Below are positions 5,097 through 59,063 of a stretch of DNA of 64,000 nucleotides, piece by piece. The stretch's first letter is position 1. Each line of letters starts with the position of its first letter. Both the position numbers and the translations under genes were made by a program. This DNA comes from Octopus vulgaris (lineage: Eukaryota). The stretch spans positions 105,462,001-105,526,000 of the forward strand of contig OX597814.1 of assembly GCA_951406725.2 (NCBI GenBank). The letters run 5' to 3'. Below the pieces are notes generated by a model that was not told the origin of the DNA, did not search any database, and saw only the letters and a list, made by a program, of their open reading frames with translations.

Positions 5097-5400
5097 TATG
5101 AGGTGTGAAACGTCAAGTTGGTCAGGTCTTAATGGTTTAAATGCTGTAATGAACGGAACGAAGAACCAGAGAAAGAATTATGATGGCCGACATGTATAAA
5201 GTTATGTTTATTATGTCTGTGGAACGTATATATATATATATGTGTGTGTGTGCGTGTGTAACTGTATATGTCTATATGTGTGTCTACGTATGTATAGAGC
5301 CGCGTATATTTGTGAGCAAATGTATTCGCATAACGATTTATTATACTTATTTTTATGATTATTATTTTCATTAACATTCTTCTTCTTCTTCTTCTTCTTC

Positions 5401-14204: not shown

Positions 14205-14783
14205 TGTCTACTCTAGGCACAAGGCCCAAAATTTTGGGGGAGGTGGGGCAGTCGATGATATCGACCCCAGTATGTAACTGGTACTTAATTTATCGACCCC
14301 AAAAGGATGAAAGGCAAAGCCAACCGCGGCGGAATTTGAACTCATAACGTAAAGACAGAGGAAATACATATTTCTTTACTACCCACAAGGGGCTAAACAC
14401 CGAGAGGACAAACAAGGACAGACAAACGGATTAAGTCGATTATATCGACCCCAGTGCGTAACTGGTACTTAATTTATCGACCCCGAAAGGATGAAAGTTA
14501 AAGTCGACCTCGCAGAATTTGAACTCAGAACGTAGCGGCAGACGAAATACCTATTTCTTTACTACCCACAAGGGGCTAAACACAGAGAGGACAAACAAGG
14601 ACAGATAAACGGATTAAGTCGATTACATCGACTCCAGTTCGTAACAGGTACATAATTTATCGACCCCGAAAGGATGGAAGGCAAAGTCGACCTCGGTGGA
14701 ATTTGAACTCAGAACGTAACGGCAGACGAAATACGGCTACGCATTTCGCCCGGCATGATACCGATTCTGCCAGCTCGCCGCCT
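14205..14783 (-). mobile_element. Head-to-tail trimer of family B SINEs
   Basis: Units joined at GAAATAC|(C)TATTTCTTTACTACCC (~14368 and ~14551); only the last unit keeps the full head. Confidence 0.85.
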
Positions 14784-15242: not shown

Positions 15243-15816
15243 TCTTGACTCTTTATTATCATTCATTTGATATTTCAAAGAAAACACAGTGAGCTTACTA
15301 TCAAAACAAAGCACCATGTAGGGTACCACGTCATATACAGACATTTAAAGATTTTGTAGTTTATGTACAACCGAGATTTCAGCAATCTTATTAGAAAAAG
15401 ATCTAGCCTGAGATGAACAGCAAAAGAATTCTATTTGTGTCAATAAATGAATAAAAACTTACACTATACTCAAAAAGGAAATACGCCCTCGCAAATAGCA
15501 GTAATCTGTCAACTATGGATTCTAAAATGCATTTAAAATTCCTTCAAGTAATTTCTCACATCCACTCATTTTAAATTAATCTTAATTATCATAACACACA
15601 CTATTACAATTTACTTCCGTCCCCATAAAGTTAATTACAAAACTATGAAATAATAAATTTTACTGACCTATTCTCCATTTCATCAGTTATGATGCTCTAT
15701 CCAGCATCAAATTAGCTCCCTTTATGCAACCCTCACAGAACACCCTACGTAATGACTTATTTAACTGCTTACACTTCCCCTATCTCTCACTCGTTCCATA
15801 TATATATATATATATA

Positions 15817-16790
15817 TCCCTCCACTTCACTTCCACTATCTCCAACACCTCTGTCTCCTTCCTCGACATTTCGGTTAGCATTCTTCACTCCACTCTTACC
15901 ACCTCCATTCACTACAAACACACAGACTCACACTCATACCTCAACTTCTCTTCCTCCCACCCAGAACACACCAAGCTTTCCATCCCCTATTCCCAATTCC
16001 TCCGTCTACGTAGGATCTGTAGTGACGACCATGACTTTGAGACTCAGTCTCAACGTATGGCTCACCACTTCACCCTACGTGGATACCCCCTCACCATTAT
16101 CCACACCGCCCTTGCCGGAGCACGGTCCGTGGACCGTGTATCTGCTCTCTCTCCCCGAACCCGCCCTGTAGTCTCCCGCCTCCCTTTTCCCCTCACTTAC
16201 CACCCCACCACCCTACGTCTCCAACGCACCATTCTTCGAGCTTTCCGTCATCTCCAGTCCGACCCGTCCACTTCACACCTCTTCCCATAACCGACCCCTC
16301 CCCTCTTTCAAACGAGCCCACAACCTTCGAGACCTTTTGGTCCATAGCTCCTTCCCTGACCCTACCTCCCAACCCGGCTTGTTCCCCTGCTCCCGCCCAC
16401 GTTGCCGCACTTGCCCCTACTTCTCCAACACCACCCTCCTCACTAGCACCCACCATCGACCCTATCCCATCATCCACTCCTTCACCTGCACCTCCAGCAA
16501 TATTATCTATTGCGTCTCTTGCTCTCTCTGCCATTCCTTGTACATCGGACAAACGGGACGCCGCTTGGCTGACCGGTTCGCGGAACACCTTCGTGACATC
16601 CACCTTGCGAACGACACACCGGTCTCACGCCATTTCCGCTCCACCGGTCACTCCTTGCAACACCTATCTGTGTTCGGTTTGTCCTTACACAGAGGCCATC
16701 CGGATTCCCGTTTGCGCCGTGAACAAGAATTAATCTTCTCTCTTCGCTCTTATACACCATTTGGTCTCAACTCCCCCCCCCCCTCCTCAT
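15817..16790 (+). pseudogene. PLE RT C-terminus plus GIY-YIG endonuclease, frameshifted
   Basis: FLDISV...YKHTDSHSYL.FSSSHP...IPYSQFLRLRRICS; PCSRPRCRTC; IIYCVSCSLC..LYIGQTGR.L..RFAEH...RE...P.GLN. A single extra base near 16288 creates TAA and a +1 shift. Confidence 0.9.
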
Positions 16791-17437
16791 CTAACCCCCT
16801 CTCTCCGCCCCCTCCTCACCTATCCTTCCCCCCGACCCCTACTTCTTCAGTCCTTCATCCTTTCACCCCTACTCCCCTTCCCTTCTTCCCTCTTTCTCCC
16901 TCCCTCCTTCCCTCTTTCTCCCTCCCTCCTTCCCTCTTCCCCTTCCCTCTGCTCCCTCACTCCCCTTCTCTCTCCCCCTCTCCCCCTCTCCTCTCCTCTT
17001 CCCCCCTCTCCTCCCCCTCTTCTCCCCCTCCCCTCTTCTCCTCTCATACACACACACACACTTATACATACTAATACGTACTAATACATACTAATACATA
17101 CTAATATATACACCAACCCCATACATACGCACGTCCAGACCTATCATACGCACTAATACTCTCTCATACACACACACACACACACACCCTTATACATACT
17201 AATACATACTAATACATACACCAACCCTATACATACACACGTCCAGACCTCTCCTACGCACTAATAGCTGGTCATTCAACCCTATTATCAACCCTATTAT
17301 CTCCCCTTATTTCGCTCTCGCGTCTCATGTTTGATCTTTGACCTCTGGCCGAAATCAGATCGCCATGTTGATTCGTTAGTTACTGCACGCATTTTTTTCT
17401 CTCCTTCTTTCTGTGTTTTTTTTTTTCTCTCTGTGTA

Positions 17438-17475
17438 TCTTTCTGTTGAAGAGCGTAGGCTCGAAACGTTAAAGA
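17438..17475 (+). ncRNA. PLE-associated minimal type I hammerhead (A6U variant)
   Basis: TCTTT CTGTTGA A GAGC-GTAG-GCTC GAAA CG TT AAAGA; palindromic AACGTT at stem III. Confidence 0.7.
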
Positions 17476-17555
17476 CTTGTTTTATTTATATTTCCTGAGC
17501 GCCATACTAATACAATTGTTCGTTTGTTTCCCACCTGCCTTCGTCTTTTGTCTAT

Positions 17556-17603
<48 letters not shown>

Positions 17604-29596: not shown

Positions 29597-32500
29597 TCTC
29601 TCTATATATAAACGGCAGTTTGTCTGTGCGTGCTTCTGTGTGTCTGTTTTCTCGTACCCTCACCCTGACCACGGCTTTCAACCGATTCTGATGAAACTTG
29701 ACACACACATAGCCCAATGTCATAATTCAAAACTAACGCAGCGAAAATTTTGAAAAGTTCCCCCAGTTCTGAAAAAAATTGATAAATTCGACATGGGGTC
29801 GAGAATCATAAACATGAACCACAGACTGTCTAGGGGACGCAACTCGAGAATCTAAGCTTTTTTTATGCAACGCATTATCTATGGTAGTTTTCACAACTTG
29901 CAATCGATTTTCACCAAACTCATGGTGAAGCTTAATGTTACCCTAAGAAACTCAATTCTGACGTTAGTTTTCCATGCAATACCTTACCATCAGAAACAAT
30001 CGATAAAATCATGCCATTTTGGGAAATCGCGTTCAAATTCAAGATGACATATTTTCGACAATATCTTTCACAAATTGGCAGGAATCTTTTTTTTTTTCAC
30101 AACGAGCATCATGTCTGCTCCAAGGAGCTATATAGCCCTTTTTATTCCAATAGGATACATTATTGGAAAAAATCGGTTAATTTAATCATACGTGGCACAC
30201 ATAGCAAACAAATTTGTGTATTAAACACAAACCAGACTGTCTAGGGGACGCAACTTGACCTTTTTAGCTATCGATAATTCGATCCAACCAATTCCTACCA
30301 GGAAGAAATTACATTCGAGACTTTACCCCCAACACCGCCACTTCTGCTAATAGCTGCTGCAGCCACAAGTTATTCGAATACTTTTTTGGTTTAAACTTTC
30401 TTTATAACTACCACCCCAAACGTTTTACCTTCAATTTTTGACGTACCCTAACGGTCCTCGGACGCTACTTGCAAACTCTTGGTTTATTATAAACCACTTT
30501 TGTCGTGTGCATCAAAAAACTTTTCCTTTCGTTTGTTCAGTTTGATCACTTTTGACTTTTTCGTTGTTGTCACTCACATTGCTGCCAGCTTTTTGGCCGT
30601 TTTTGTACTTTTTATACATTTTCGGATACTTACCCCACGAGCTCCTTTTTATTACACCTTTACCAAACACATTACTATCCACCAAAATACTTACCCCACG
30701 TGTTCCTTTTTATTACACCTTTGCCAAACACATTGCTATCCACCAAAATGCCACCCAAGAAGAGAAGGACCCTCCTCAGCCCTCGGACGGCCAAGGCATC
30801 GGCTGCTAGGGCTAGAAGGGCACGCGAGACCCACGAGGAAACCGCCTTGCGCCTCTCGCAAACAGCTTCCCGTTATGCCGCTGCTCAGGCATCTGAAACT
30901 ACTAGCGACCGTTCTACCCGACTTGCAAGGGTCGCAGCGTACAGATCTTCCCTCCGCTCGAGGTTGACGAAAGAGCAAAAGTCCAGCCAAAACATGCGGG
31001 CTTCTTACTCTGCTTCCATCCGCAGAACGCGCGAGAACCCCGAACAAAGGGCCATTCGGAATGCGGCTAACGCCACTAGCACCGCCAGGACACGATCTGT
31101 CGAAACCTCACAGCAGAGGAGAACTCGCCAAGATGCTGACGCCGCAAACAAAGCCATGGCCAAAGCTGCCGAAACACCTCAACAGAGGAGAGCTCGCCAA
31201 GCTGCTAACGCCGCAAACACAGCCAGGGCTCGATCTGCCGAAACTCCACACCAACGGACTATTCGGACATCCAGACATGCCATTAACACTGCTTCTGCTA
31301 GGGCTTCAGAGGGTGCTGAGGCGAGAGCTGAAAGGCTTTCAAGGGATGCCACTGCTACCGCTGTCGCACGTGCATCTGAATCTGCTGAGGCACGGTGCAC
31401 TCGACTTGAGAGTATCAACAAACGTCGGGATATCATTCGTGGTGTACGTACCCCTGCCCCCGCTTTCTGGTTGTCACTAGCATTCAACTACGACGCCACA
31501 ATTAACTTCTCCTTGCGTGACGACATCAAGATAGGGTCAATGACAATTGTATGCCTGTTTTGCAAAGCCAAGAAATGGCCCGGAGAGCCACCTGGTTTGT
31601 GCTGCTCTGGTGGCAAAGTGGACCTGCCACCCCTACGGGAACCACCTCAACCACTGAAGGATCTCGCGGCGGGTTTAACCCCCGATTCGTCACAATTCCT
31701 TGAAATAATTCGAAAGTACAACTGCTCATTCCAAATGACCTCTTTCGGGGCCAAAATTCCTCCCAGAGAAGGCTGGATGCCTACTTTCAAAGTGCAGGGA
31801 CAGGTCTACCATCTTATTGGGTCACTTCTGCCAGACGAGATTCAGCAGTCTTCTTTCCTCCAAATATACTTCATTGCCGGCTACAACCACCAGGTTGATG
31901 CACGCCTTGGATTAATACCGGGTACAAGCTATGTTCCCCGCAAAGACGTTCTTCTCCGTCTCCAAACCATGCTTCATGATATCAACAGCTACGTCTGCAG
32001 CTTTAGATATGCCTTGGACAGTGCTCCATCTCCAAACTTCACCGTTGTCATTGATGCTGATAAACGACCCCACGGGGAGCACGAACGCCGTTTCAACGCA
32101 CCTGCGTGCAACGAAATTGCCGCAGTCATACACGGAGAGCAACACAACAGCCGTGACATAATCATCTCCTCCCGTGGTAACGACCTACACAGGATCAGCG
32201 AGACTCACAGATCTTATGACGCGCTTCAGTATCCATTGCTTTTCCCTTATGGGGAAGACGGCTACCACTTCGGAATTCCTTTACGGCAGCCCTCCAATCA
32301 AACTACTGCGGCATCAAAGACGGTTTCCTGCAGGGCGTTCTACTCATACCGGTTCATGGTCAGGGAGGGTGAGTTCAACTTATTGCCCCGTTGTCGTCAG
32401 CTATTCAACCAGTTCGCCGTCGACATGGCCGCAAAAATGGAATCGGAAAGGCTGCTATACATTAAACTTAATCAGACCAAACTTCGCTCCGACTCCTACA

Positions 32501-35500
32501 TTCATCTCCGTGACGGTTTGCAACAAGAAAATGACCCTCGCAACATCGGCAAGCCATGCATTCTACCCTCCACCTTCACGGGAGGACCGCGATATATGCG
32601 TGAAAGGACCCAAGACGCCTTGACCTACGTGCGCATTTACGGCCGGCCGGACCTCTTTATCACCTACACGTGCAATCCCAGCTGCGACGAAATCACTCGC
32701 GAACTCCTCCCGGGTCAATCTCACACCCATCGACACGATATCGTTGCTAGGGTTTTCCGTCTGAATTTGGGCAAAATGAAGGATTTGATAGTTAAGGGTC
32801 AGATTTTCGGGCATGTCAGGTGCCACATGTTTTCGGTCGAGTGGCAAAAGAGGGGCTTGCCACATGCTCACATCTTAATTTAGCTCACTCATAAAATCGA
32901 GACTAATGACATTGACAAATTCATTTCCGCCGAGATTCCTGACCCGATGAGGACCCCGGACTCTACGAAATTGTCCGCACTACCATGGTACACGGGCCCT
33001 GTGGACCAAATTACGCCAACACACCATGCTACAAAAACGGATTAGCCTGCTCAAAGGGATTCCCTAAACGGTTCACTTTGGAGACTCAAACAGGCGGCGA
33101 TGGGTATCCGCTGTACAAACGAAGGAGTCCAGCCAATGGAGGCCGCACGATTACGGTTGGGCGACATCAAGTGGACAACAGCTACATTGTCCCCTACTGT
33201 CCTCTCCTGTCGAAGATATTCAAAGCCCACGTCAACGTTGAGTTCTGCAGCTCCATCAGGTCAATACAATATGTCTGCAAATATATCAACAAAGGCAGCG
33301 ATGCTGCCATGTTCAGCATCCAGAGGACCACCAGTCGCGACGAAGTGTCCAACTACTTGGCTGGCCGGTACCTCAGCAGCAACGAAGCGTTTTGGCGCAT
33401 TTACGGCTTCCCGCTCCATCAGAGACACCCGGCTGTGGTGCAGCTTGCTGTACACTTGGAAAATGGACAGCGGATTTACTTTGGTGGATAGCTGTGCACA
33501 TAGCCACCAGCCCTAAAGACACAACGTTGACTGGTTTCTTCAAATTATGCCAACGTGATGACTTCGCTCGAACGCTTTTGTACCCACAGGTCCCATCGTA
33601 CTTCGTGTGGTCTAAAAACACCTGGGTCCGACGGAAATCCGGCAAAAACGTCGAAAGCTTCCCAGGCGTCAAGTTTGACTCCTGCCTGGGTCGAGTTTAC
33701 AACATCCCGCCAAACCAGCAAGAATGCTTCTACCTCCGTCTCCTTCTACATGAGGTCACTGGTCCAACAGGTTTCGCCAATATACGTACCGTCAATGGGG
33801 TTCTGTGCGACACCTTCAGGGAAGCATGTATGAGACTTGGCCTTCTAGAGGATGACTCCCAGTGGGACGCCACGATGGCAGAGGGTGCTTTACTGCAAAC
33901 GCATTCGGCCCTACGACATCTTTTCGCAATCCTTCTTCAAAAATGTCAGCTTAGTGATCCACTAAGTCTCTGGATGAAATACAGGGATGACATGTCGCAC
34001 GACTTCTTACGTACGGCTCAGCAACACTGCCCTTCCGCCGAGATCACGTTCACCAACTTCATTTACAATTTTGCGCTCATTCAACTCGAAGACGCTGTCA
34101 TCGATATGGGTGGGTCTGCTTTAACAGAGTACGGCCTTCCACCACCCACACGTGAACACGCCAATGTTATGTCTGCTGAATTGTTACGCGAAACTTCCTA
34201 CTGCATTGAGGAACTGCACCAGTACGTCCAAGATAATGAACCACGGCTGATTCCAGACCAGCGCATAGCCTACAACACCATCGTAGACTCTGTCAGACAG
34301 CAACGTGGGGGGATTTTCTTCCTTGATGCACCCGGCGGCACTGGCAAAACCTTCGTCACTAAACTAATTCTGGCAGAGGTCAGACGCAACACGGACATTG
34401 CCCTGGCTGTAGCTTCCTCTGGTATCGCGGCCACGTTGCTTCCGGGTGGCAGAACCGCCCACTCTGCCTTCAGACTCCCGCTCGATCTGGCAAAGTCCGA
34501 GTCACCTATCTGCAACATCGCCAAGAACTCAGAACAGGCCGACATTCTGCGCAGATGCAAACTCATCGTATGGGACGAGTGCACTATGGCACACAAAGGC
34601 GCCCTTGAGGCACTGGACAGGTCCCTGCAAGACATCAGAGACTCTACGGCCCCCATGGGAGGATTAACTTTACTTCTTTCAGGAGACTTCAGGCAGACTC
34701 TACCTGTTATTCCAAAAGGAACCCGTGCCGATGCCGTGCGCGCGTGCCTTAAGTCGTCAGCTCTTTGGGCACATGTGCGGCCCTTGCACCTCCAAACTAA
34801 CATGCGCGCGCAGTTAATTGGTGACAGCGGATCCGCTGCATTCTCCAGGGACCTCTTATCGCTCGGTGAAAATAGGATGCTGTCTGATGCGGATGGCTAC
34901 GTTCAATTGGACTCACTTTGCACCATTGTCGATACCCCTGCTAGCCTCCGGGACGCTGTCTTCCACGACCTACAAAACAATTTACGCGACCTAAAATGGC
35001 TGGCAGGCAGAGCTATTCTCGCACCCAAAAATACAACCGTCAACTCCATCAATATCCAGCTACTTGAAGCTATTCCTGGTGATGTCCACGTCTACAAATC
35101 TATAGATAGGACAGCAGACCCCGCCCAGCTTGCCGATTATCCTGTTGAATTCCTGAATTCACTTGAACCGCCAGGCCTGCCACCACACATCCTGAAGTTA
35201 AAAGTCGGTGCGCCCATTATGCTCATCAGGAATTTGGTTCCACCTAAACAGTGCAACGGCACACGTTTGGTTGTGAAACATTTGGCACCACATTTAATAA
35301 CGGCCACAATACTTACCGGTTGTGGGAAGGGAGAGGACGTCTTCATTCCACGGATGCACCTTCAACCGTCGGGCGCTGACCTACCAATCCACTTCAGGCG
35401 TTCTCAGTTTCCTGTTAAACTCTGCTTCGCAATGTCCATCAATAAATCCCAAGGCCAAACGCTACAAGTCGCTGGGTTACATTTGGGCGAACAGTGCTTC

Positions 35501-35736
35501 GCCCACGGTCAACTCTACGTGGGCTGTTCACGCGTTGGGAGGCGCAATGATGTTTTCATGTTTTCGCCCAAACGGACAGCTAGGAACATCGTATATACAG
35601 AAGTATTCCAGTGAAGACAAGACATTGCAACGTCCACATGCACCTTCGTTCCCTGGAGGGAAAGGACTACATTGGGATTAGTCGTTGCCTACTAGGGGCT
35701 CTTACATACCCGGGCAACGCCGGGCTATGCTGCTAG
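29597..35736 (+). mobile_element. Full-length Helitron
   Basis: 5' TC (TCTCTCTATATATAAAC), subterminal hairpin CCCGG-GCAACG-CCGGG (35709-35724), 3' CTAG, inserted between A(29596) and T(35737) with no TSD; contains a RepHel ORF. Confidence 0.95.
30748..35614 (+). pseudogene. Helitron Rep/PIF1 helicase with one premature stop and two frameshifts
   Basis: MPPKKRR start; Rep motifs PDLFITYTCNP, VEWQKRGLPHAHIL (HUH), YVCKYINK; PIF1 motifs APGGTGKT, IVWDE, GDFRQTLPV, QFPVKLCFAMSINKSQGQT, HGQLYVGCSRV. TAG at 32881 (probably from TGG); shifts near 32946 and 33485. Confidence 0.95.
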
Positions 35737-37938: not shown

Positions 37939-38266
37939 AATATATATATATATATGTATATCCTATTTTTCTTATATCAAGGAATTTTCTAACACATTCT
38001 AGATGACATATTATTTTATCGTTGCCATATTTTTATTCTGCTTTTGTAGCAGACTTCTTTCAGGAAATCAAATCTCTAACGAACAGATAATCTTTCCTTC
38101 ATATCTCAAATACAGAAATCCGCACCATTTTTTCTTCTTTTCTTCTTTTGGTGTTTATTTCGTATAAAATGCAGTACTCTCACTGAGTTATTTAGAATAA
38201 AGGAAATTCCCTTTCATACACACACACACACACACTAACATGTATATATATATATATATATATATA

Positions 38267-38788
38267 TTAAGGTATGTAGAAAAATACAACATGGACAAGA
38301 ACGTATAACTCTTAGAAGACGACACAATAAACACGGACAGGACATTCGAAACCCTCAGTCTTCAGTCAAGAACCGGATCATCGTAGTAATTTCGGCTGAT
38401 TAATCTTGAGATTACTAGATCACGGCCAGCCCTCCAAGAAAAACCAAGCAACGAGCATTAGAAAAACTAAGCTGGAAGCGTAGATTTCCTGGAAGAAGGA
38501 TCGAATGCATACGAACACCAGGACAGCAAAAGGGACAGATATAAAAAAAAACAAAAAACAATAATGGAATACAGAAACATGAAATACAGAAGCATTAACG
38601 GTGAAAACAACAGTGTCTTACGACTGATAACAAGCAAACAAATTTTTTCTCTGGCGCAATGGAAAAAGCCTTTATAGTGGCGGACGAAAACAGCGATGTT
38701 AACAAGACGAGGGTCAGGAACTGAAAGGCAGATTTCGGCCAACAGTCACGTGACAGAGAAGAGGGAAAAGAAAAGAAAGAGAAGCAAA

Positions 38789-38822
<34 letters not shown>

Positions 38823-40033
38823 GGACAAACGCAACAAAGAGAGAGAAGAGAGAGAAAGAAGGAATCAGAGAGAAGGGATGGGTGTCGAAGAATGACCTGT
38901 GAGTGCAGAGCGAGACAAAGAAATAGGAGGGTAGTGGAAGACTAGACCAAAGAATCAGAGGAAAGAGAAGAGAAAAAGAGGATGAGTAGAGAGAAAGAGA
39001 GAGAGGGGGACAGATCAAGTAAAAATGAGAGAGAGAGAGAGACAAACAGAGAGTCGTACCAATTATTAAGAATATGTGCTCACATAAATGTTAAGGGGGG
39101 TACGGGGCGCCTGGAATATATGTTAAGGTATGTAGAAAAATACAACATGGACAAGAACGTATAACTCTTAGAAGACGACACAATAAACACGGACAGGACA
39201 TTCGAAACCCTCAGTCTTCAGTCAAGAACCGGATCATCGTAGTAATTTCGGCTGATTAATCTTGAGATTACTAGATCACGGCCAGCCCTCCAAGAAAAAC
39301 CAAGCAACGAGCATTAGAAAAACTAAGCTGGAAGCGTAGATTTCCTGGAAGAAGGATCGAATGCATACGAACACCAGGACAGCAAAAGGGACAGATATAA
39401 AAAAAAAAAAAACAATAATGGAATACAGAAACATGAAATACAGAAGCATTAACGGTGAAAACAACAGTGTCTTACGACTGATAACAAGCAAACAAATTTT
39501 TTCTCTGGCGCAATGGAAAAAGCCTTTATAGTGGCGGACGAAAACAGCGATGTTAACAAGACGAGGGTCAGGAACTGAAAGGCAGATTTCGGCCAACAGT
39601 CACGTGACAGAGAAGAGGGAAAAGAAAAGAAAGAGAAGCAAAGGAAGAGAGAGAGAGAGGAGAGAGAGAGAGGAGGGACAAACGCAACAAAGAGAGAGAA
39701 GAGAGAGAAAGAAGGAATCAGAGAGAAGGGATGGGTGTCGAAGAATGACCTGTGAGTGCAGAGCGAGACAAAGAAATAGGAGGGTAGTGGAAGACTAGAC
39801 CAAAGAATCAGAGGAAAGAGAAGAGAAAAAGAGGATGAGTAGAGAGAAAAGAGAGAGAGGGGGACAGATCAAGTAAAAATGAGAGAGAGAGAGAGACAAA
39901 CAGAGAGTCGTACCAATTATTAAGAATATGTGCTCACATAAATGTTAAGGGGGGTACGGGGCGCCTGGAATATATGTTAAGGTATGTAGAAAAATACAAC
40001 ATGGACAAGAACGTATAACTCTTAGAAGACGAC

Positions 40034-40038
<5 letters not shown>
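38267..40038 (-). repeat. Tandem array of ~855 bp non-coding units (2 full plus ~62 bp partial) between (TA)n tracts
   Basis: TTAAGGTATGTAGAAAAATAC recurs at 38267, 39123 and 39977; copies differ mainly in simple-sequence runs. Confidence 0.92.
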
Positions 40039-40074
<36 letters not shown>

Positions 40075-47587: not shown

Positions 47588-47644
47588 TTAAAATGGAATC
47601 CCGGGTATCTTTATTGGCGAAAAGAATTATACTTTTTCACAAAT

Positions 47645-47860
47645 ATATTTCTTTACTACCCACAAGGTGCTAAACACAGAGGGGACAAACAAGTACAGAC
47701 AAACGGATTAAGTTGATTACATCGACTCCAGTGCGTAACTGGTACTTAAGTTATCGACTCCGAAAGGATGAAAGGCAAAGTCGACCTCGGAAATTTGAAC
47801 TCAGAACATAACGGCAGACGAAATACGGCTACGCATTTCGCTCGGCGTGCTAACGTTTCT
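47645..47860 (-). mobile_element. Family B SINE whose 5' tip (50084-50099) is displaced by a Tx1-like insertion
   Basis: Intact copies read GCTAACGTTTCT-GCCAGCTCGCCGCCTT; here the two parts are ~2.2 kb apart. Confidence 0.85.
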
Positions 47861-48401: not shown

Positions 48402-49824
48402 TTACCTTGTTTCGTCTGGGTCCGGCGGACGGGGGGAACCCGTCTCTTCCGCCTCCTGGGCCCGTGGAATCGGCGTGCTGGTGTTCTTCTTTTCGACGTC
48501 TTTTTTAGCGTCTTCTTCACTCATCCTAGATGAGCACACATCCTTTCGAAAGTCATTAGTAAGTACATTGATCATTCTTTGTCCCATCAGGTAGCATTTC
48601 CATTCTCCTTTTCCTTCTTCGATGTGGTGAGTTTCCACTCTTCGCATCACTTCTCTATTCGATGTGTTTATTGCCGCGTAAACGTTATTTTCTTTTTCAG
48701 GTTTTTTTGCTTTTTTAACCTCTCTTTTCTCTCCTCCACTTTTAGTTTTCTCGGGGAGAGGTTCTTATGTTTTCACTTTGTAGCTGTTTGCGACCACCCC
48801 TCCCCTCTTCTGGTATGGGTGTTGTCGTTGTTATAGTTACCTGTGTAGTTGGTTTTAGGGTCTCTTCCTTTTTCTTCCCTTCTTACAGTTTACAATCTTT
48901 CTTAATATGGCCTTTTTTGCCGCAGTTAAAACACCTGGGCTGCCGGCCCTCAACCATTACAGCCATCCGGCAGTCGCCTATTTGTATTACCTCTCCCATC
49001 TCCTCTAGGACGGCCGGCTCTGCCTGTATCATGATCTTTACCTTTTGTCCTTGCCACTTTTTGGCGTCCTCAACAGTAGCGTCCCTGATTTCGAGTTTCT
49101 CTTCTAGTCCTGCGGCGACTGCGGCCACTATCTGTTCAGGTTCGACCTCCGGTGGTATATTCATTACCGTGATTCTTGAAACGCGTCTTCCTCTGTAGAC
49201 GGGAAGAAGAGTTATCGCCTCCGTTCTCAATGTATTCATCGATTGTTCTCTTGCTTCTTCTTCCGTTTCAAATCTAGTCTCCACGGTTCCATACCGCTTT
49301 CCTCTGGTGATAAATTTTATTTTTTCCCAGATGGGTTTTAAGCACAGTTCCACTTCCTTTTCAGATGAGAAGTCTATCTTTTTCTCTTTATTTCTATACG
49401 TTTTATAAATTATTGTTCTTTTCTCTATCCCTTCACGAGATTCCTGTGACTGCCGTATTTTTATTTCATAACCGTTTCTTGATATAGTCTTCTTTATTTC
49501 TTCCAGTTTTGATAAATTAATTTTTCTTTCTTTGGGACCTGCCGCATCGGTGAAGTTTAACATCTTCTTTGCCAAGCTTGGCACGTCTATATTTCTGCGC
49601 ACCTGCAATTTTTCTTTTTTGGTTACGCTTTTTTCCTCTTCGTCGGTATCAGAGAAAAAACCGGGTATACCCATTCTTTCTGGACTGGACATCCTGCTAA
49701 CTGGTATTCTTTCTGGACTGGACATCCTGCTAACTGGACTTTTGCTTAGGACCTGGGTTCGGTCCTCAGTTCTGTCCGCCTTCGGGCTGGCCATTATTGG
49801 CCTACCCCTCCTTAGCGACTTCAA
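48402..49824 (-). pseudogene. Tx1/L1-like ORF1 (zinc knuckle), broken after the knuckle
   Basis: VEGRQPRCFNCGKKGHIKKDC; stop at 48883; probable C-terminal part at 48402-48650 ends just before the ORF2 ATG. Confidence 0.8.
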
Positions 49825-50287
49825 TAAATGACAATCAAATAATATACTTCGAATAACAATTCAAAAAGAACTTTTTTTTTTCCCAAAAACAACAGCTGGT
49901 AATAAAATCCCGGTTATAACATAGACAATTCAATTGACAACTTCTATAAAAAGTAACGACAAGCGTTCCTTCTATAAAGCAACGGCACGCCTCGCGCGAT
50001 TTGATGCCGTTACGTCTTTTTTACAATTTTTCACTTTTTTTCCATCCTTCCGAACAAAAAACAACGTCCGACTCTAACGGCGTGCCAGCTCGCCGCCTTA
50101 CTTTTTCACAAATATGCGAGAGCGCGTGCACACAAACACACAAACACACACACACATGCACAAATTCATAAGGAACAATACGCGCACTTTATTCGCATAC
50201 AAATATTTATCATCTCAGGAAAATATCGATCCGGCTGATGTAACGCATTTTGCATGAAATAGTGACGAGAGAGAGAGAGAGAAAACC

Positions 50288-50761: not shown

Positions 50762-51513
50762 AAAGCGGCGAAACGGTAGAACCTATTTCTTTACTACCCA
50801 TAAGGGGCTAAACACAGAAGGGACAAACAAGGACAGACAAACGGATTAAGTCGATTTTATCGACCCCAGTGCGTAAATGGTACTTATTTAATCGACCCCG
50901 AAAGGATGAAAGGCAATGTCGACCTCGGCGGAAATTGAACTCAGAACATAAAGACAGACAAAATACCTATTTCTTTACTACCCACAAAGGGTTAAACACA
51001 GAGAGGACAAACAAGGACAGACAAACGGATTAAGTCGATATAATCGACCCTAGTGTGTAACTGGTACTTATTTAATCGACCCCGAAAGGATGAAAGGCAA
51101 AGTCGACCTCGGCGGAAATTGAACTCAGAACGTAACGGCAGACGAAATACCGCTCAGCATTTCGCCCGGCGTGCTAACGTTTGCCGAATAGAATGCTTAG
51201 CGGCATTTCGTCTGTCTTTGTGTTTTGAGTTCATATTCCACCGAGGTTGATTTTGCCTTTCATCCGTTCGGGAGTCGATGAAATAAGTACGAATTGATCA
51301 CTGGAGTGAGGGGGGATCGATGTAATCGACTTACCCCCTCCCCCGTAATTGCTGGCCTTGTGCCAAAGTTTGAAACCAATATTGTTATTGTTGTTGAGCT
51401 GGCAGAATCGTTGGCACGCCGGACAAAATGTTTAGTGGCATATCGTCCGTCTTCACGTCATGTGTTCAAATTCGACAGAAGTCGACTCTACCTGTTATGT
51501 TTTCGGGATCGAT
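50762..51513. mobile_element. Family B SINE cluster: minus-strand dimer (50783-51180) apparently nested in the head of a plus-strand copy, plus one more copy
   Basis: Plus-strand head remnant at 50762-50782 resumes at ~51181; dimer junction GACAAAATAC|CTATTTCTTTAC. Confidence 0.75.
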
Positions 51514-56412: not shown

Positions 56413-56454
56413 ATAGTTGCAGGCGCAGGTATATAATAATTTTTTTTTTTTTTT

Positions 56455-56610
56455 ATTGTCCACAAGGGGCTGAACATAGAGGGAACAAACAAGGACAGAC
56501 GAACAGATTAAGTCGATTACATCGACCTCAGTGCGTAACTGGTACTTAATTTATCGACCCCGTAATGATGAAAGGCAAAGTCGACCTTGGCGGAATTTGA
56601 ACTCAGAACG
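56455..56610 (-). mobile_element. Family B SINE, head truncated
   Basis: Tail CCACAAGGGGCTGAAC and core ATGAAAGGCAAAGTCGACC. Confidence 0.8.
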
Positions 56611-56851
56611 CATTGAGTCGAACCAGGGGCAGCTGATGAAGGGGAATTTTCCTTGTACTGTTTGTCCTGTACTCTATTTTTTCGTTGTTAAAAAAAGTCC
56701 GTTTCCTTTTTTGATTTTATGTTTTCGTTTCTCGCTGTGTTCTACGTTTATTTGTGGTGTCCTGTACTCATATATGCATGTATATATACATATAGATGTA
56801 GGTATGTACATATATGTATGTATATATGCATATGTTATATTCATTAAATTG

Positions 56852-56952: not shown

Positions 56953-57126
56953 TATATGGGTACAGGACGTCTCAAACTGAAAACAACATGAAATACGAAA
57001 ATAAATGAGTTGAATACTCAAACAACGAGAGAAACAAATGAAAAACAGGACAAGTCACATAAAGAACGACCCTTCATCAGTTATCGGTTGTCCATCTACT
57101 CCTCATTTCGAGCATTGAATGACAAG

Positions 57127-57162: not shown

Positions 57163-57165
<3 letters not shown>

Positions 57166-59018
57166 GGTTTTTTTTCTTTGTGTTAATTGTCTTGTACTCT
57201 ATTTTTTTGTTGTTTAAAAAATTTCCAGTTCCTTGGGTTTGTGTCTATGTTTTCGTTTTTCATTGTGTTCGACGTCTTTTTGGTGTCCTGTACTCATATA
57301 TGCGTGTATATGTACATGTAGAGGTAGGTACGTACATATATGTTTATATATATGCATATGTTTTATTTATTAATATATTATATGACGAAACGCACGCATC
57401 CCTTTTTAAGTAAGATTGTTCTTGATATTAACTTTGATGCGCACTCTTAACCTTTCTGTCCCATCCCTTTCTCAGCCTTCATTCTTTGATTTCCTTTTCC
57501 TCTACTTAACTTGTCTCTCCCTCTCTCTCATTCTTCATTCTCTCTCTCTCTCCCTCTCTCATTCTTCATGGTTTCCTCATGACCATTCCCCTTCTTCTCT
57601 CCCTTTCTCTTGCTCCTCTTCCCCCTCCCGTCGTTGACCCGTGACGAGACTTCCGCTACTGTCTTTCTAGCCTAACCCTCTCGAGGTGTGAACGGCAATT
57701 CTTTTTGCTCCGTTCGTCGTTCACAAAAAAATGCTCGTTCGTAATACTTTTTTTCGTTCGGCGTTAACAACCCTTCTTATCTTGTTTTTCCTTGTCCTGT
57801 CTTTTACTGCTTATTATTTGTACTGTCGTTACTGTCCTGTTTTTGTTACCATTTTTTTACCTCTCTGCGAAAAGATCTCAAAATTTTAATTGATTTGCTT
57901 TTCGCAGGAAGGAAATTTTCTTGTCGAAGATACGTCTCGCTTTCACCTTCGAAACGTAGAGTAGATGAAACCATAGCGACTGAAGAAGGGGATTTTTCTT
58001 TGTGTTAATTGTCCTGTACTCTATTTTTTTGTTGTTTAAAAAAATGTCCAGTTCCTTGGGTTTCTGTCTATGTTTTCGTTTCTCATTGTGTTCGACGTCT
58101 TTTTGGTGTCCTGTACTCATATATGCGTGTATATGTACATGTAGAGGTAGGTACGTACATATATGTTTATATATATGCATATGTTTTATTTATTAATATA
58201 TTATATGACGAAACGCACGCATCCCTTTTTAAGTAAGATTGTTCTTGATATTAACTTTGATGCGCACTCTTAACCTTTCTGTCCCATCCCTTTCTCAGCC
58301 TTCATTCTTTGATTTCCTTTTCCTCTACTTAACTTGTCTCTCCCTCTCTCTCATTCTTCATTCTCTCTCTCTCTCCCTCTCTCATTCTTCATGGTTTCCT
58401 CATGACCATTCCCCTTCTTCTCTCCCTTTCTCTTGCTCCTCTTCCCCCCTCCCGTCGTTGACCCGTGACGAGACTTCCGCTACTGTCTTTCTAGCCTAAC
58501 CCTCTCGAGGTGTGAACGGCAATTCTTTTTGCTCCGTTCGTCGTTCACAAAAAAATGCTCGTTCGTAATACTTTTTTTCGTTCGGCGTTAACAACCCTTC
58601 TTATCTTGTTTTTCCTTGTCCTGTCTTTTACTGCTTATTATTTGTACTGTCGTTACTGTCCTGTTTTTGTTACCATTTTTTTACCTCTCTGCGAAAAGAT
58701 CTCAAAATTTTAATTGATTTGCTTTTCGCAGGAAGGAAATTTTCTTGTCGAAGATACGTCTCGCTTTCACCTTCGAAACGTAGAGTAGATGAAACCATAG
58801 CGACTGAAGAAGGGGATTTTTCTTTGTGTTAATTGTCCTGTACTCTATTTTTTTGTTGTTTAAAAAAATGTCCAGTTCCTTGGGTTTCTGTCTATGTTTT
58901 CGTTTCTCATTGTGTTCGACGTCTTTTTGGTGTCCTGTACTCATATATGCGTGTATATGTACATGTAGAGGTAGGTACGTACATATATGTTTATATATAT
59001 GCATATGTTTTATTTATT

Positions 59019-59020
<2 letters not shown>
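57163..59020 (+). repeat. Tandem array of 824 bp non-coding units (~215 bp partial plus 2 full) between (TA)n tracts
   Basis: Period 824 (for example GAAACGTAGAG at 57951 and 58775). Confidence 0.93.

Positions 59021-59063
<43 letters not shown>

Follow-up and report, generated by a model that had tools for sequence, protein, structure and literature searches.

Non-circularly permuted hammerheads were described by Eckert et al. 2023 (PMC10085705) as types SGC, CSG and GCS. In the accessible text of that paper, type SGC carries its stem II strand directly after CUGANGA within a block C that is assumed to be unsplittable, an A9/G10.1 insertion of more than 1-2 nt is stated as unknown, and the RNAs come from metatranscriptomes only, with no genome of a known organism. 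Metazoan non-LTR retrozymes, as presented in the accessible parts of two reports (PMC7229834; 10.64898/2026.07.22.740005), are dispersed monomers to multimers of non-coding tandem units with one ribozyme each, for which PLE dependence and a circular intermediate are proposed; they carry type I hammerheads, and their units are mostly 170-400 nt long, within a range of 51-972 bp in Li et al. 2026 (10.64898/2026.07.22.740005). Insertion into (TA)n is reported for Naiad PLEs, which, in the accessible text of Craig et al. 2021 (PMC8557442), are without canonical hammerheads; some of them have an unexplained "core" or "half core" flanked on one side or the other by GAAA.

The DNA analyzed here, the window, is a 64,000-nt stretch of the Octopus vulgaris genome (contig OX597814.1, positions 105,462,001 to 105,526,000). 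On its minus strand it holds a tandem insertion of an 856-bp unit which we assess, with a probability of about two in three, as a young, dispersed, protein-free repeat bearing a predicted S-G-C hammerhead with an upstream-completed stem II and spread as self-cut, likely circularized RNA via a Penelope-type reverse transcriptase. Its best reading would be a Penelope-dependent retrozyme with an undescribed hammerhead topology. Like the non-LTR retrozymes, it has dispersed, tandem, non-coding units of a length within their range, with one ribozyme each and a proposed dependence on PLEs and circles; unlike theirs, its ribozyme is not type I. Like Naiads (PMC8557442), it targets (TA)n and has a fold that we also find in Naiad 3' UTRs; unlike them, it lacks an ORF.

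The insertion spans 38267-40039 on the minus strand and consists of two 856-bp units plus ~62 nt (2.07 tandem units), BLAST within the window giving a direct repeat of 927 nt at an offset of 856 and 99.5% identity. Its 3' end is fixed at 38268/38267, its 5' end is truncated at unit position +81, and TRF finds (TA)n target remnants at both ends (38243-38267 and 40037-40072). The unit is 71% pyrimidine, with a long CT-rich tract at 39610-39900 (second copy ~38760-39045) that is the source of a unit-length variation of 848-871 nt. The array, the flanking (TA)n and the pyrimidine tracts thus stand as the original prediction had them. The unit is non-coding, its longest ATG ORF reaching 43 aa on the sense strand and 69 aa on the antisense strand, and Rfam at gathering threshold returns no match across the window. 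Just past the pyrimidine tract lies an E-box-like motif, CACGTGAC, at 39599-39608 (second copy 38745-38754) on the minus strand; a similar box stands at a similar position, 280-360 nt upstream, in lineages A, B and C. It is a candidate internal promoter element. We set aside a TATA-like box at 39530, which is not conserved among relatives. At the other end of the unit, a U-rich 3' tail (38268-38342, minus strand) ends at the fixed insertion end, ~142 nt beyond the predicted cut, and the TA-like stretch that continues it at the unit junction could anneal to a target primer. This layout of pyrimidine tract, ribozyme, U-rich tail and (TA)n, seen also in a PLE remnant at 15667-17560 of the window, is like that of Neptune-type PLE pLTRs with minimal type I hammerheads, which differ in their canonical C-G order and short stem III and have no BLAST homology to the unit.

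A 451-nt query gave 1,110 first-look candidates in the genome, and all 40 that were scored are 99-100% identical and spread over many chromosomes, which answers the proposed copy-number check and excludes a single locus or an assembly artifact. Thirty fetched loci resolve into 14 insertions. All 13 with a visible 3' end terminate at one site ~142 nt past the predicted cut, followed by (TA)n, whereas no two of the 14 insertions share a 5' end, and 13 of these ends follow TA-rich DNA. A fixed 3' end, 5' truncation and a (TA)n target constitute a PLE-type insertion footprint. The largest array has 14 ribozyme sites. Among 25 units, 6 of 835 ungapped columns are variable and length changes (848-871) arise through microsatellites, with 0.57 differences within arrays versus 1.01 between arrays, units so nearly identical that a rolling-circle origin is indistinguishable. 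From the near-identity, the single 3' end and the 14-site array it follows that the 856-bp family is very young and has been copied from one constant priming site, at times across many units.

The window's second array (57163-59031, plus strand) belongs to lineage B, has a period of ~822-824 and the same ribozyme topology, with GAAA at 57951 and 58775. The claim that the two arrays represent one class of element is borne out by their common fixed 3' end, 5' truncation, (TA)n target, GAAA-before-CUGANGA core and PLE-like footprint. Their description as sequence-unrelated is correct at the BLAST level (no link between the 856-bp array and 57171-59031 at E 1e-10), but the shared topology and the CACGTGAC-like box point to distant common ancestry rather than convergence. 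The lineage-B array adjoins short lineage-B/C copies, with fragments at 56600-56760 (plus strand) and 56960-57125 (minus strand), and a lineage-C copy beside it begins no more than a few bases from its own predicted cut; this cluster is a hotspot of nested insertions in TA-rich DNA.

Within each unit, the predicted ribozyme domain (39199-39363, with an identical second copy at 38343-38507, both on the minus strand) runs in the order P0a - H1 - IIa - X5' - III'/AUC - Ib - IIb - GAAA - III - X3' - Ia - CUGAAGA - P0b. Stem I joins the six bases that precede CUGAAGA to a strand lying upstream of GAAA, and stem III joins the bases after GAAA to a strand still farther upstream that ends in AUC. Since both partner strands lie upstream of GAAA, the core runs cleavage site, GAAA, CUGANGA, i.e., S-G-C. 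In minus-strand coordinates for the first copy, block S (stem III 5' strand, AUC triplet and stem I 3' strand) occupies 39260-39273, with the cut predicted at 39266|39265 by structural analogy; block G (stem II 3' strand ending in C11.1, GAAA and stem III 3' strand) occupies 39240-39255; and block C, minus its stem II strand, is the stem I 5' strand and CUGAAGA at 39215-39227. The resulting cut-to-cut monomer of 856 nt, the RNA predicted for circularization, is 38410-39265. All conserved elements, CUGANGA, GAAA and NUH with A15.1-U16.1, are present, and every core position is intact in 77 of 77 units.

The remaining stem is where this RNA departs from type SGC. The bases before GAAA pair with a strand upstream of block S (39282-39287, partner 39255-39250, minus strand), whose first base is G10.1 opposite C11.1, and the bases after CUGANGA form instead a long helix, P0, with a strand ~150 nt upstream (39351-39363, minus strand, pairing with 39212-39199 immediately 3' of CUGAAGA). 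Between P0 and G10.1 lies a hairpin, H1 (39288-39350, minus strand), whose 3' end leads into G10.1 and which is enlarged in the subfamily studied here through local duplication. A three-way junction with an A9-10.1 link of 0-2 nt is therefore not what we find, A9 leading into P0; with A9 passing into P0 and H1 into G10.1, the link would become a four-way junction. With block C interrupted and closed off by P0/H1, the reverse-cyclic ring is opened in a fourth way, at A9/G10.1, which contradicts the assumption in Eckert et al. (PMC10085705) that block C is unsplittable. As in the SGC RNAs of that paper, the order is S-G-C with every core nucleotide present, the link between stems I and II is short (1-6 nt here, typically 3 there), and an additional helix connects stems I and II at their distal ends. 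P0, H1 and the split stem II emerge in the subfamily's own MFE fold; the circular MFE of the entire 856-nt monomer, in which pseudoknots are unscorable, is without the ribozyme domain.

Pairing in relatives supports the model. In 37 lineage-A sequences it pairs 84.9% of cells, against 28-47% for slid controls, with two-sided change in 29 of 53 pairs; in 21 sequences of lineages B and C the paired share is 94.1%, and 98% for the split stem II. Stems I and III are 92-95% paired in lineages A and B/C, most of their pairs showing two-sided change, and helix X is 84% paired in lineage A with two-sided change in four of its seven pairs. The two helices of P0 are 83% and 69% paired in relatives (the lower value being that of the inner pairs in lineage A), and those of H1 83% and 94%. 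G10.1-C11.1 is G-C in 33/37 lineage-A and 19/21 lineage-B/C sequences, and U16.1, which is absent from the search pattern, pairs in all 37 lineage-A sequences. Related copies enter these covariation counts as if independent, and the conservation of CUGANGA and GAAA is partly circular, as both belong to most search patterns. In our lineage-A alignment the studied subfamily is misaligned over P0/H1 because of its duplication.

The original prediction had correctly located a TCAGCC-GAAA-24 nt-CTGAAGA-CTGA motif at 39255-39211 and 38399-38355, and had paired TCAG with CTGA, left the CC unpaired as an imperfection and pointed to an AUC within the 24-nt spacer. This fold does not hold: as stem II, the TCAG/CTGA duplex is worth -2.0 kcal/mol against -8.3 for the split stem II, the CC is part of stem II and is paired by an upstream GG, and with the spacer AUC as cut site stem III comes to +1.7 kcal/mol, the cut triplet lying upstream of GAAA. 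A related proposal would be an ordinary type SGC hammerhead, a type that Eckert et al. 2023 (PMC10085705) validated experimentally, with TCAG/CTGA as canonical stem II, a CC bulge and the upstream strand acting as an inhibitory off-state. The four TCAG/CTGA pairs can form in the studied subfamily, and lineages B and C allow a weak canonical stem II of 4 bp, with two G-U pairs and an insert of 1 nt, that is 85% paired, so that an intact block C (stem I, CUGANGA and stem II strand) is weakly feasible there. In the 37 lineage-A sequences, however, canonical stem II is paired in 10% of cells without an insert and in 32% with one of 2 nt, which does not exceed the level of shuffles, and G10.1-C11.1 is preserved by the split form and not by the canonical one; we consider the ordinary SGC reading very unlikely. 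The type II-like fold of the original prediction and a canonical stem II with a 0- or 2-nt insert are thereby rejected. Two other folds were also discarded. One paired the purines after CUGANGA beside the upstream strand of stem II and gave way to P0/H1. The other, judged by eye, was a type I reading that took the conserved GAAUG farther downstream for block G; stem I, however, covaries with the upstream strand, and GAAUG lies in P0.

We further applied a descriptor to the fetched loci and identified 85 distinct S-G-C cores, 50 of which form the split stem II only, 16 both forms, 3 the canonical form only and 16 neither. A split stem II of at least 5 bp starting at G10.1-C11.1 is thus found in 66/85 cores, in four main sequence versions, and the cut triplets are AUC (39), GUA (22), GUC (11), AUA (7), GUU (5) and AUU (1). 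The same descriptor finds one core and no split stem in 20 shuffled 64-kb windows, and 21 of 30 loci picked independently of the core retain it. Genome-wide, the lineage-A pattern of GAAA before CUGANGA has 13,904 matches versus 384 for a reversed control, and the lineage-B pattern 6,319 versus 42. The split-stem fold covaries in four sequence lineages, and canonical stem II fails in the lineage studied. The possible weak canonical stem II of lineages B and C suggests either a switch or an intermediate toward plain SGC.

Relatives that extend far in the 5' direction meet their own tail again, with a period of 711-841 nt and no ORF (an own-tail repeat was seen in 15 examined loci, 5 of them at other spacings), and such permuted monomers, together with the arrays, are consistent with circles as predicted intermediates. 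Inverted 5'-truncated partner copies are also present among the relatives. Examples lie at 2635-2735 and 5105-5205 of locus L050 and at loci L137 and L139, with the junction at or near the predicted cut; a PLE beside L050 was dismissed as a partner, being antisense and separate.

The architecture poses a geometric puzzle. Helix X (3' strand 39229-39235, minus strand, partner 39281-39274) extends stem III and bridges stems I and II at their distal ends through linkers of 0-2 nt. By its topology it is the likely equivalent of the interaction helix that Eckert et al. describe between these two stems, and in the model it must fold back along the core. A kink-turn has a consensus of a 3-nt bulge followed by tandem G-A/A-G. 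Matched to this consensus, 27/29 lineage-A and 14/17 Naiad-type sequences have a kink-turn between stem III and helix X; under a strict pattern it is absent from 14 of 15 lineage-B sequences and from the studied subfamily, which keeps a 4-nt bulge in its place. Lineage-B/C loci (e.g., L126, L171 and L144) have AGUA/GAA-like or GUAGA/GA strands in the stem III-X loop and no standard kink-turn. The broken A9-G10.1 link could also disturb the A9/G10.1 metal site. As the studied subfamily lacks the kink-turn, the geometry of its monomer is uncertain, and the same pairs could be used in a strand-swapped dimer in which one unit contributes blocks S and G together with the stem III/X hairpin and the next provides the stem II strand and block C, tandem arrays supplying both parts in cis. 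Such a dimer would fit the tight links, 0-2 nt on two sides, that connect stem I, stem II and helix X distally; PLE hammerheads are reported to cleave as dimers (PMC6765202; PMC7229834), and Eckert et al. (PMC10085705) noted the same puzzle in some SGC RNAs. Against it, the kink-turn of most lineage-A and Naiad-type sequences would allow a monomer to fold back, and Naiad UTRs are frequently single-copy. With kink-turns in most relatives, a monomeric fold appears plausible for the class; an active dimer is possible in the studied subfamily, and overall we regard it as unlikely.

The 5' ends of copies bear on whether the predicted ribozyme cuts. If linear cleaved RNA is reverse-transcribed, copies are expected to begin at or just after the cut. 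A genome search for (TA)n with the lineage-A GAAA block no more than 31 nt downstream gave 1,275 matches. The first 100 were counted by eye after dropping three duplicate rows and one row of another family: of the remaining 96, 26 begin at the predicted cut, 63 begin between +3 and +14, for the most part at TA/AT microhomologies, and 7 begin upstream. For the other phase, the first 100 of 1,034 matches include 3 upstream starts among ~90. The adjacent 31-nt upstream window has 220 matches versus 1,275, i.e., ~7 starts per base upstream versus ~84 per base after the cut, the two anchors spanning different subfamily sets. The pile-up is indirect evidence that the ribozyme likely cuts in living cells. 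A stall of the reverse transcriptase at a helix could give a similar step; we consider it less likely, as strands that lie upstream of the cut would already be without partners by then.

For the studied subfamily itself, one may ask whether the ribozyme is vestigial, the arrays being read-through multimers or products of DNA duplication and the helices retained for recognition by the reverse transcriptase. Its kink-turn is lost and its H1 duplicated, its self-cleavage is a prediction from sequence, and in Xenopus, according to the accessible part of the report (10.64898/2026.07.22.740005), 8/9 tested retrozyme dimers were uncleaved in vitro. Yet all 17 listed matches with the subfamily's stem III variant start at or after the cut and none upstream, despite TA microhomology there, and core positions are preserved in every unit, making an inactive ribozyme quite unlikely.

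We also inspected by eye the last 330-420 nt of 53 of the 54 Naiad consensi in File S5 of Craig et al. 2021 (PMC8557442). The split-stem fold is present in eight of the 53: Bfor (in which stem I is weak), Chem-3, Amil, Aacu, Anas, Movir-2, Obim and Ovul. Six nematode Naiads (Nbra-1, -2, -3, Hcon, Hpol and Asuum) show by eye a plain type CSG fold, a type so far known from two metagenomic sequences. Naiads of the octopus genome match the published Octopus consensi, and the Octopus Naiad version of the ribozyme has 375 exact pattern matches in the genome versus 0 for the control. When 30 loci were chosen by the end of the Naiad ORF, 12 carried the core downstream, several with same-strand RT remnants upstream; at locus L279, as at others, an RT remnant (RVT_1 E 1.3e-5, below the Pfam cut-off) is followed by the UTR and then by the split-stem fold. 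The element shares this fold with the Octopus Naiad UTR, from which it apparently differs in sequence outside the fold, and is itself free of the Naiad ORF (N-terminal GIY-YIG, C-terminal RT). Its ribozyme design, common to Naiad 3' UTRs, was likely inherited from a Naiad-type ancestor. We noticed other motifs in this set: one in Movir-1 and Chem-4 that we take to be twister-like, and one in the bivalve, hemichordate and Chem-1/-2 Naiads that is presumably HDV-like. Naiads may swap ribozyme classes.

As the Naiad copies found in the genome are old, with mostly broken RTs, they are unlikely movers of so young a family, and a young PLE with a C-terminal endonuclease is the more likely present carrier. 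Two young autonomous families of this kind reside in (TA)n, with intact ORFs of 811 aa and 753 aa (loci L111-L114 and L289-L296), and all 150 scored matches of the 811-aa PLE are identical over the endonuclease end. Among the matches listed, their 3' UTRs have no hammerhead core order and do not share the tail, so the suggested search for an autonomous PLE with the same 3' tail came back empty. In tblastn of PLE proteins against the fetched loci, no same-strand ORF lies upstream of a lineage A, B or C ribozyme.

From these features we propose the following cycle. Transcription from an internal promoter near the CACGTGAC box would read through the array, and each unit would fold as a hammerhead, with helix X tying the distal ends of stems I and II, through a kink-turn in relatives. 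This fold is backed by covariation, and the 5' ends indirectly favor the next step, in which two cuts after AUC would free an 856-nt monomer. By analogy with known retrozymes (PMC7229834), a host ligase may close some monomers. A PLE acting in trans would perform target-primed reverse transcription, its endonuclease nicking (TA)n and its RT priming at the fixed site ~142 nt past the cut, where the insertion footprint is observed. On linear RNA the RT would run off at the cut, leaving short copies; on circles or uncut multimers it would continue, generating permuted monomers and arrays.

Other mobile elements populate the window. At 15667-17560 (plus strand) lies a PLE remnant, 5'-truncated and frameshifted, that retains an RT end, a CxxC linker and a GIY-YIG-like end. 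After it come a pyrimidine tract, a decayed minimal hammerhead of canonical order, a tail and (TA)n, and it has an 11-nt motif in common with the studied unit at 39595-39585. Short cores of canonical order (CUGANGA then GAAA) at ~17734, 36033 and 60241, all on the minus strand, are probably other PLE ends. We further find a Helitron with long open frames at 30556-35614 (plus strand; Helitron_like_N E 5.5e-52, PIF1 helicase E 1.3e-63), a 325-aa ORF ending in a CCHC zinc knuckle at 48883-49860 (minus strand), probably a retrotransposon ORF1/gag, and an abundant SINE-like repeat (14250-14770, 47640-47860, 50781-51182 and 56448-56610) that is partly arranged in 183-184 bp tandem units.

Weinberg et al. 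2015 is reportedly cited for hammerheads "containing additional helices". We found no report of a split-stem S-G-C topology, or of hammerheads in Naiads, in the mostly open literature searched, and the accessible text of Forgia et al. 2023 describes no such A9/G10.1 helix. The ribozyme is apparently a hammerhead variant outside the six described permutations, and the element itself apparently of a known kind, a PLE-dependent retrozyme, whose S-G-C order would be missed by type I descriptors. We lean toward a broader view as well, somewhat less firmly than toward the main reading: that this is a seventh natural topology, active in vivo, and an overlooked Naiad ribozyme from ctenophores to cephalopods that has seeded a large, still-moving class of retrozymes missed by type I searches.

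If the ribozyme cuts, the stated rule that CUGANGA is contiguous with stem II would be broken, and the caged fold would be attractive for structural work and could serve as a new scaffold for ribozyme switches. Non-circular permutations would move from anonymous metatranscriptome contigs to animal genomes, in tens of thousands of copies, with >20,000 pattern matches in this animal genome, and censuses of retrozyme and PLE ribozymes based on type I would be undercounts. Cleavage would also explain the "half-core" motifs of Naiads and overturn the claim that these elements lack hammerheads.
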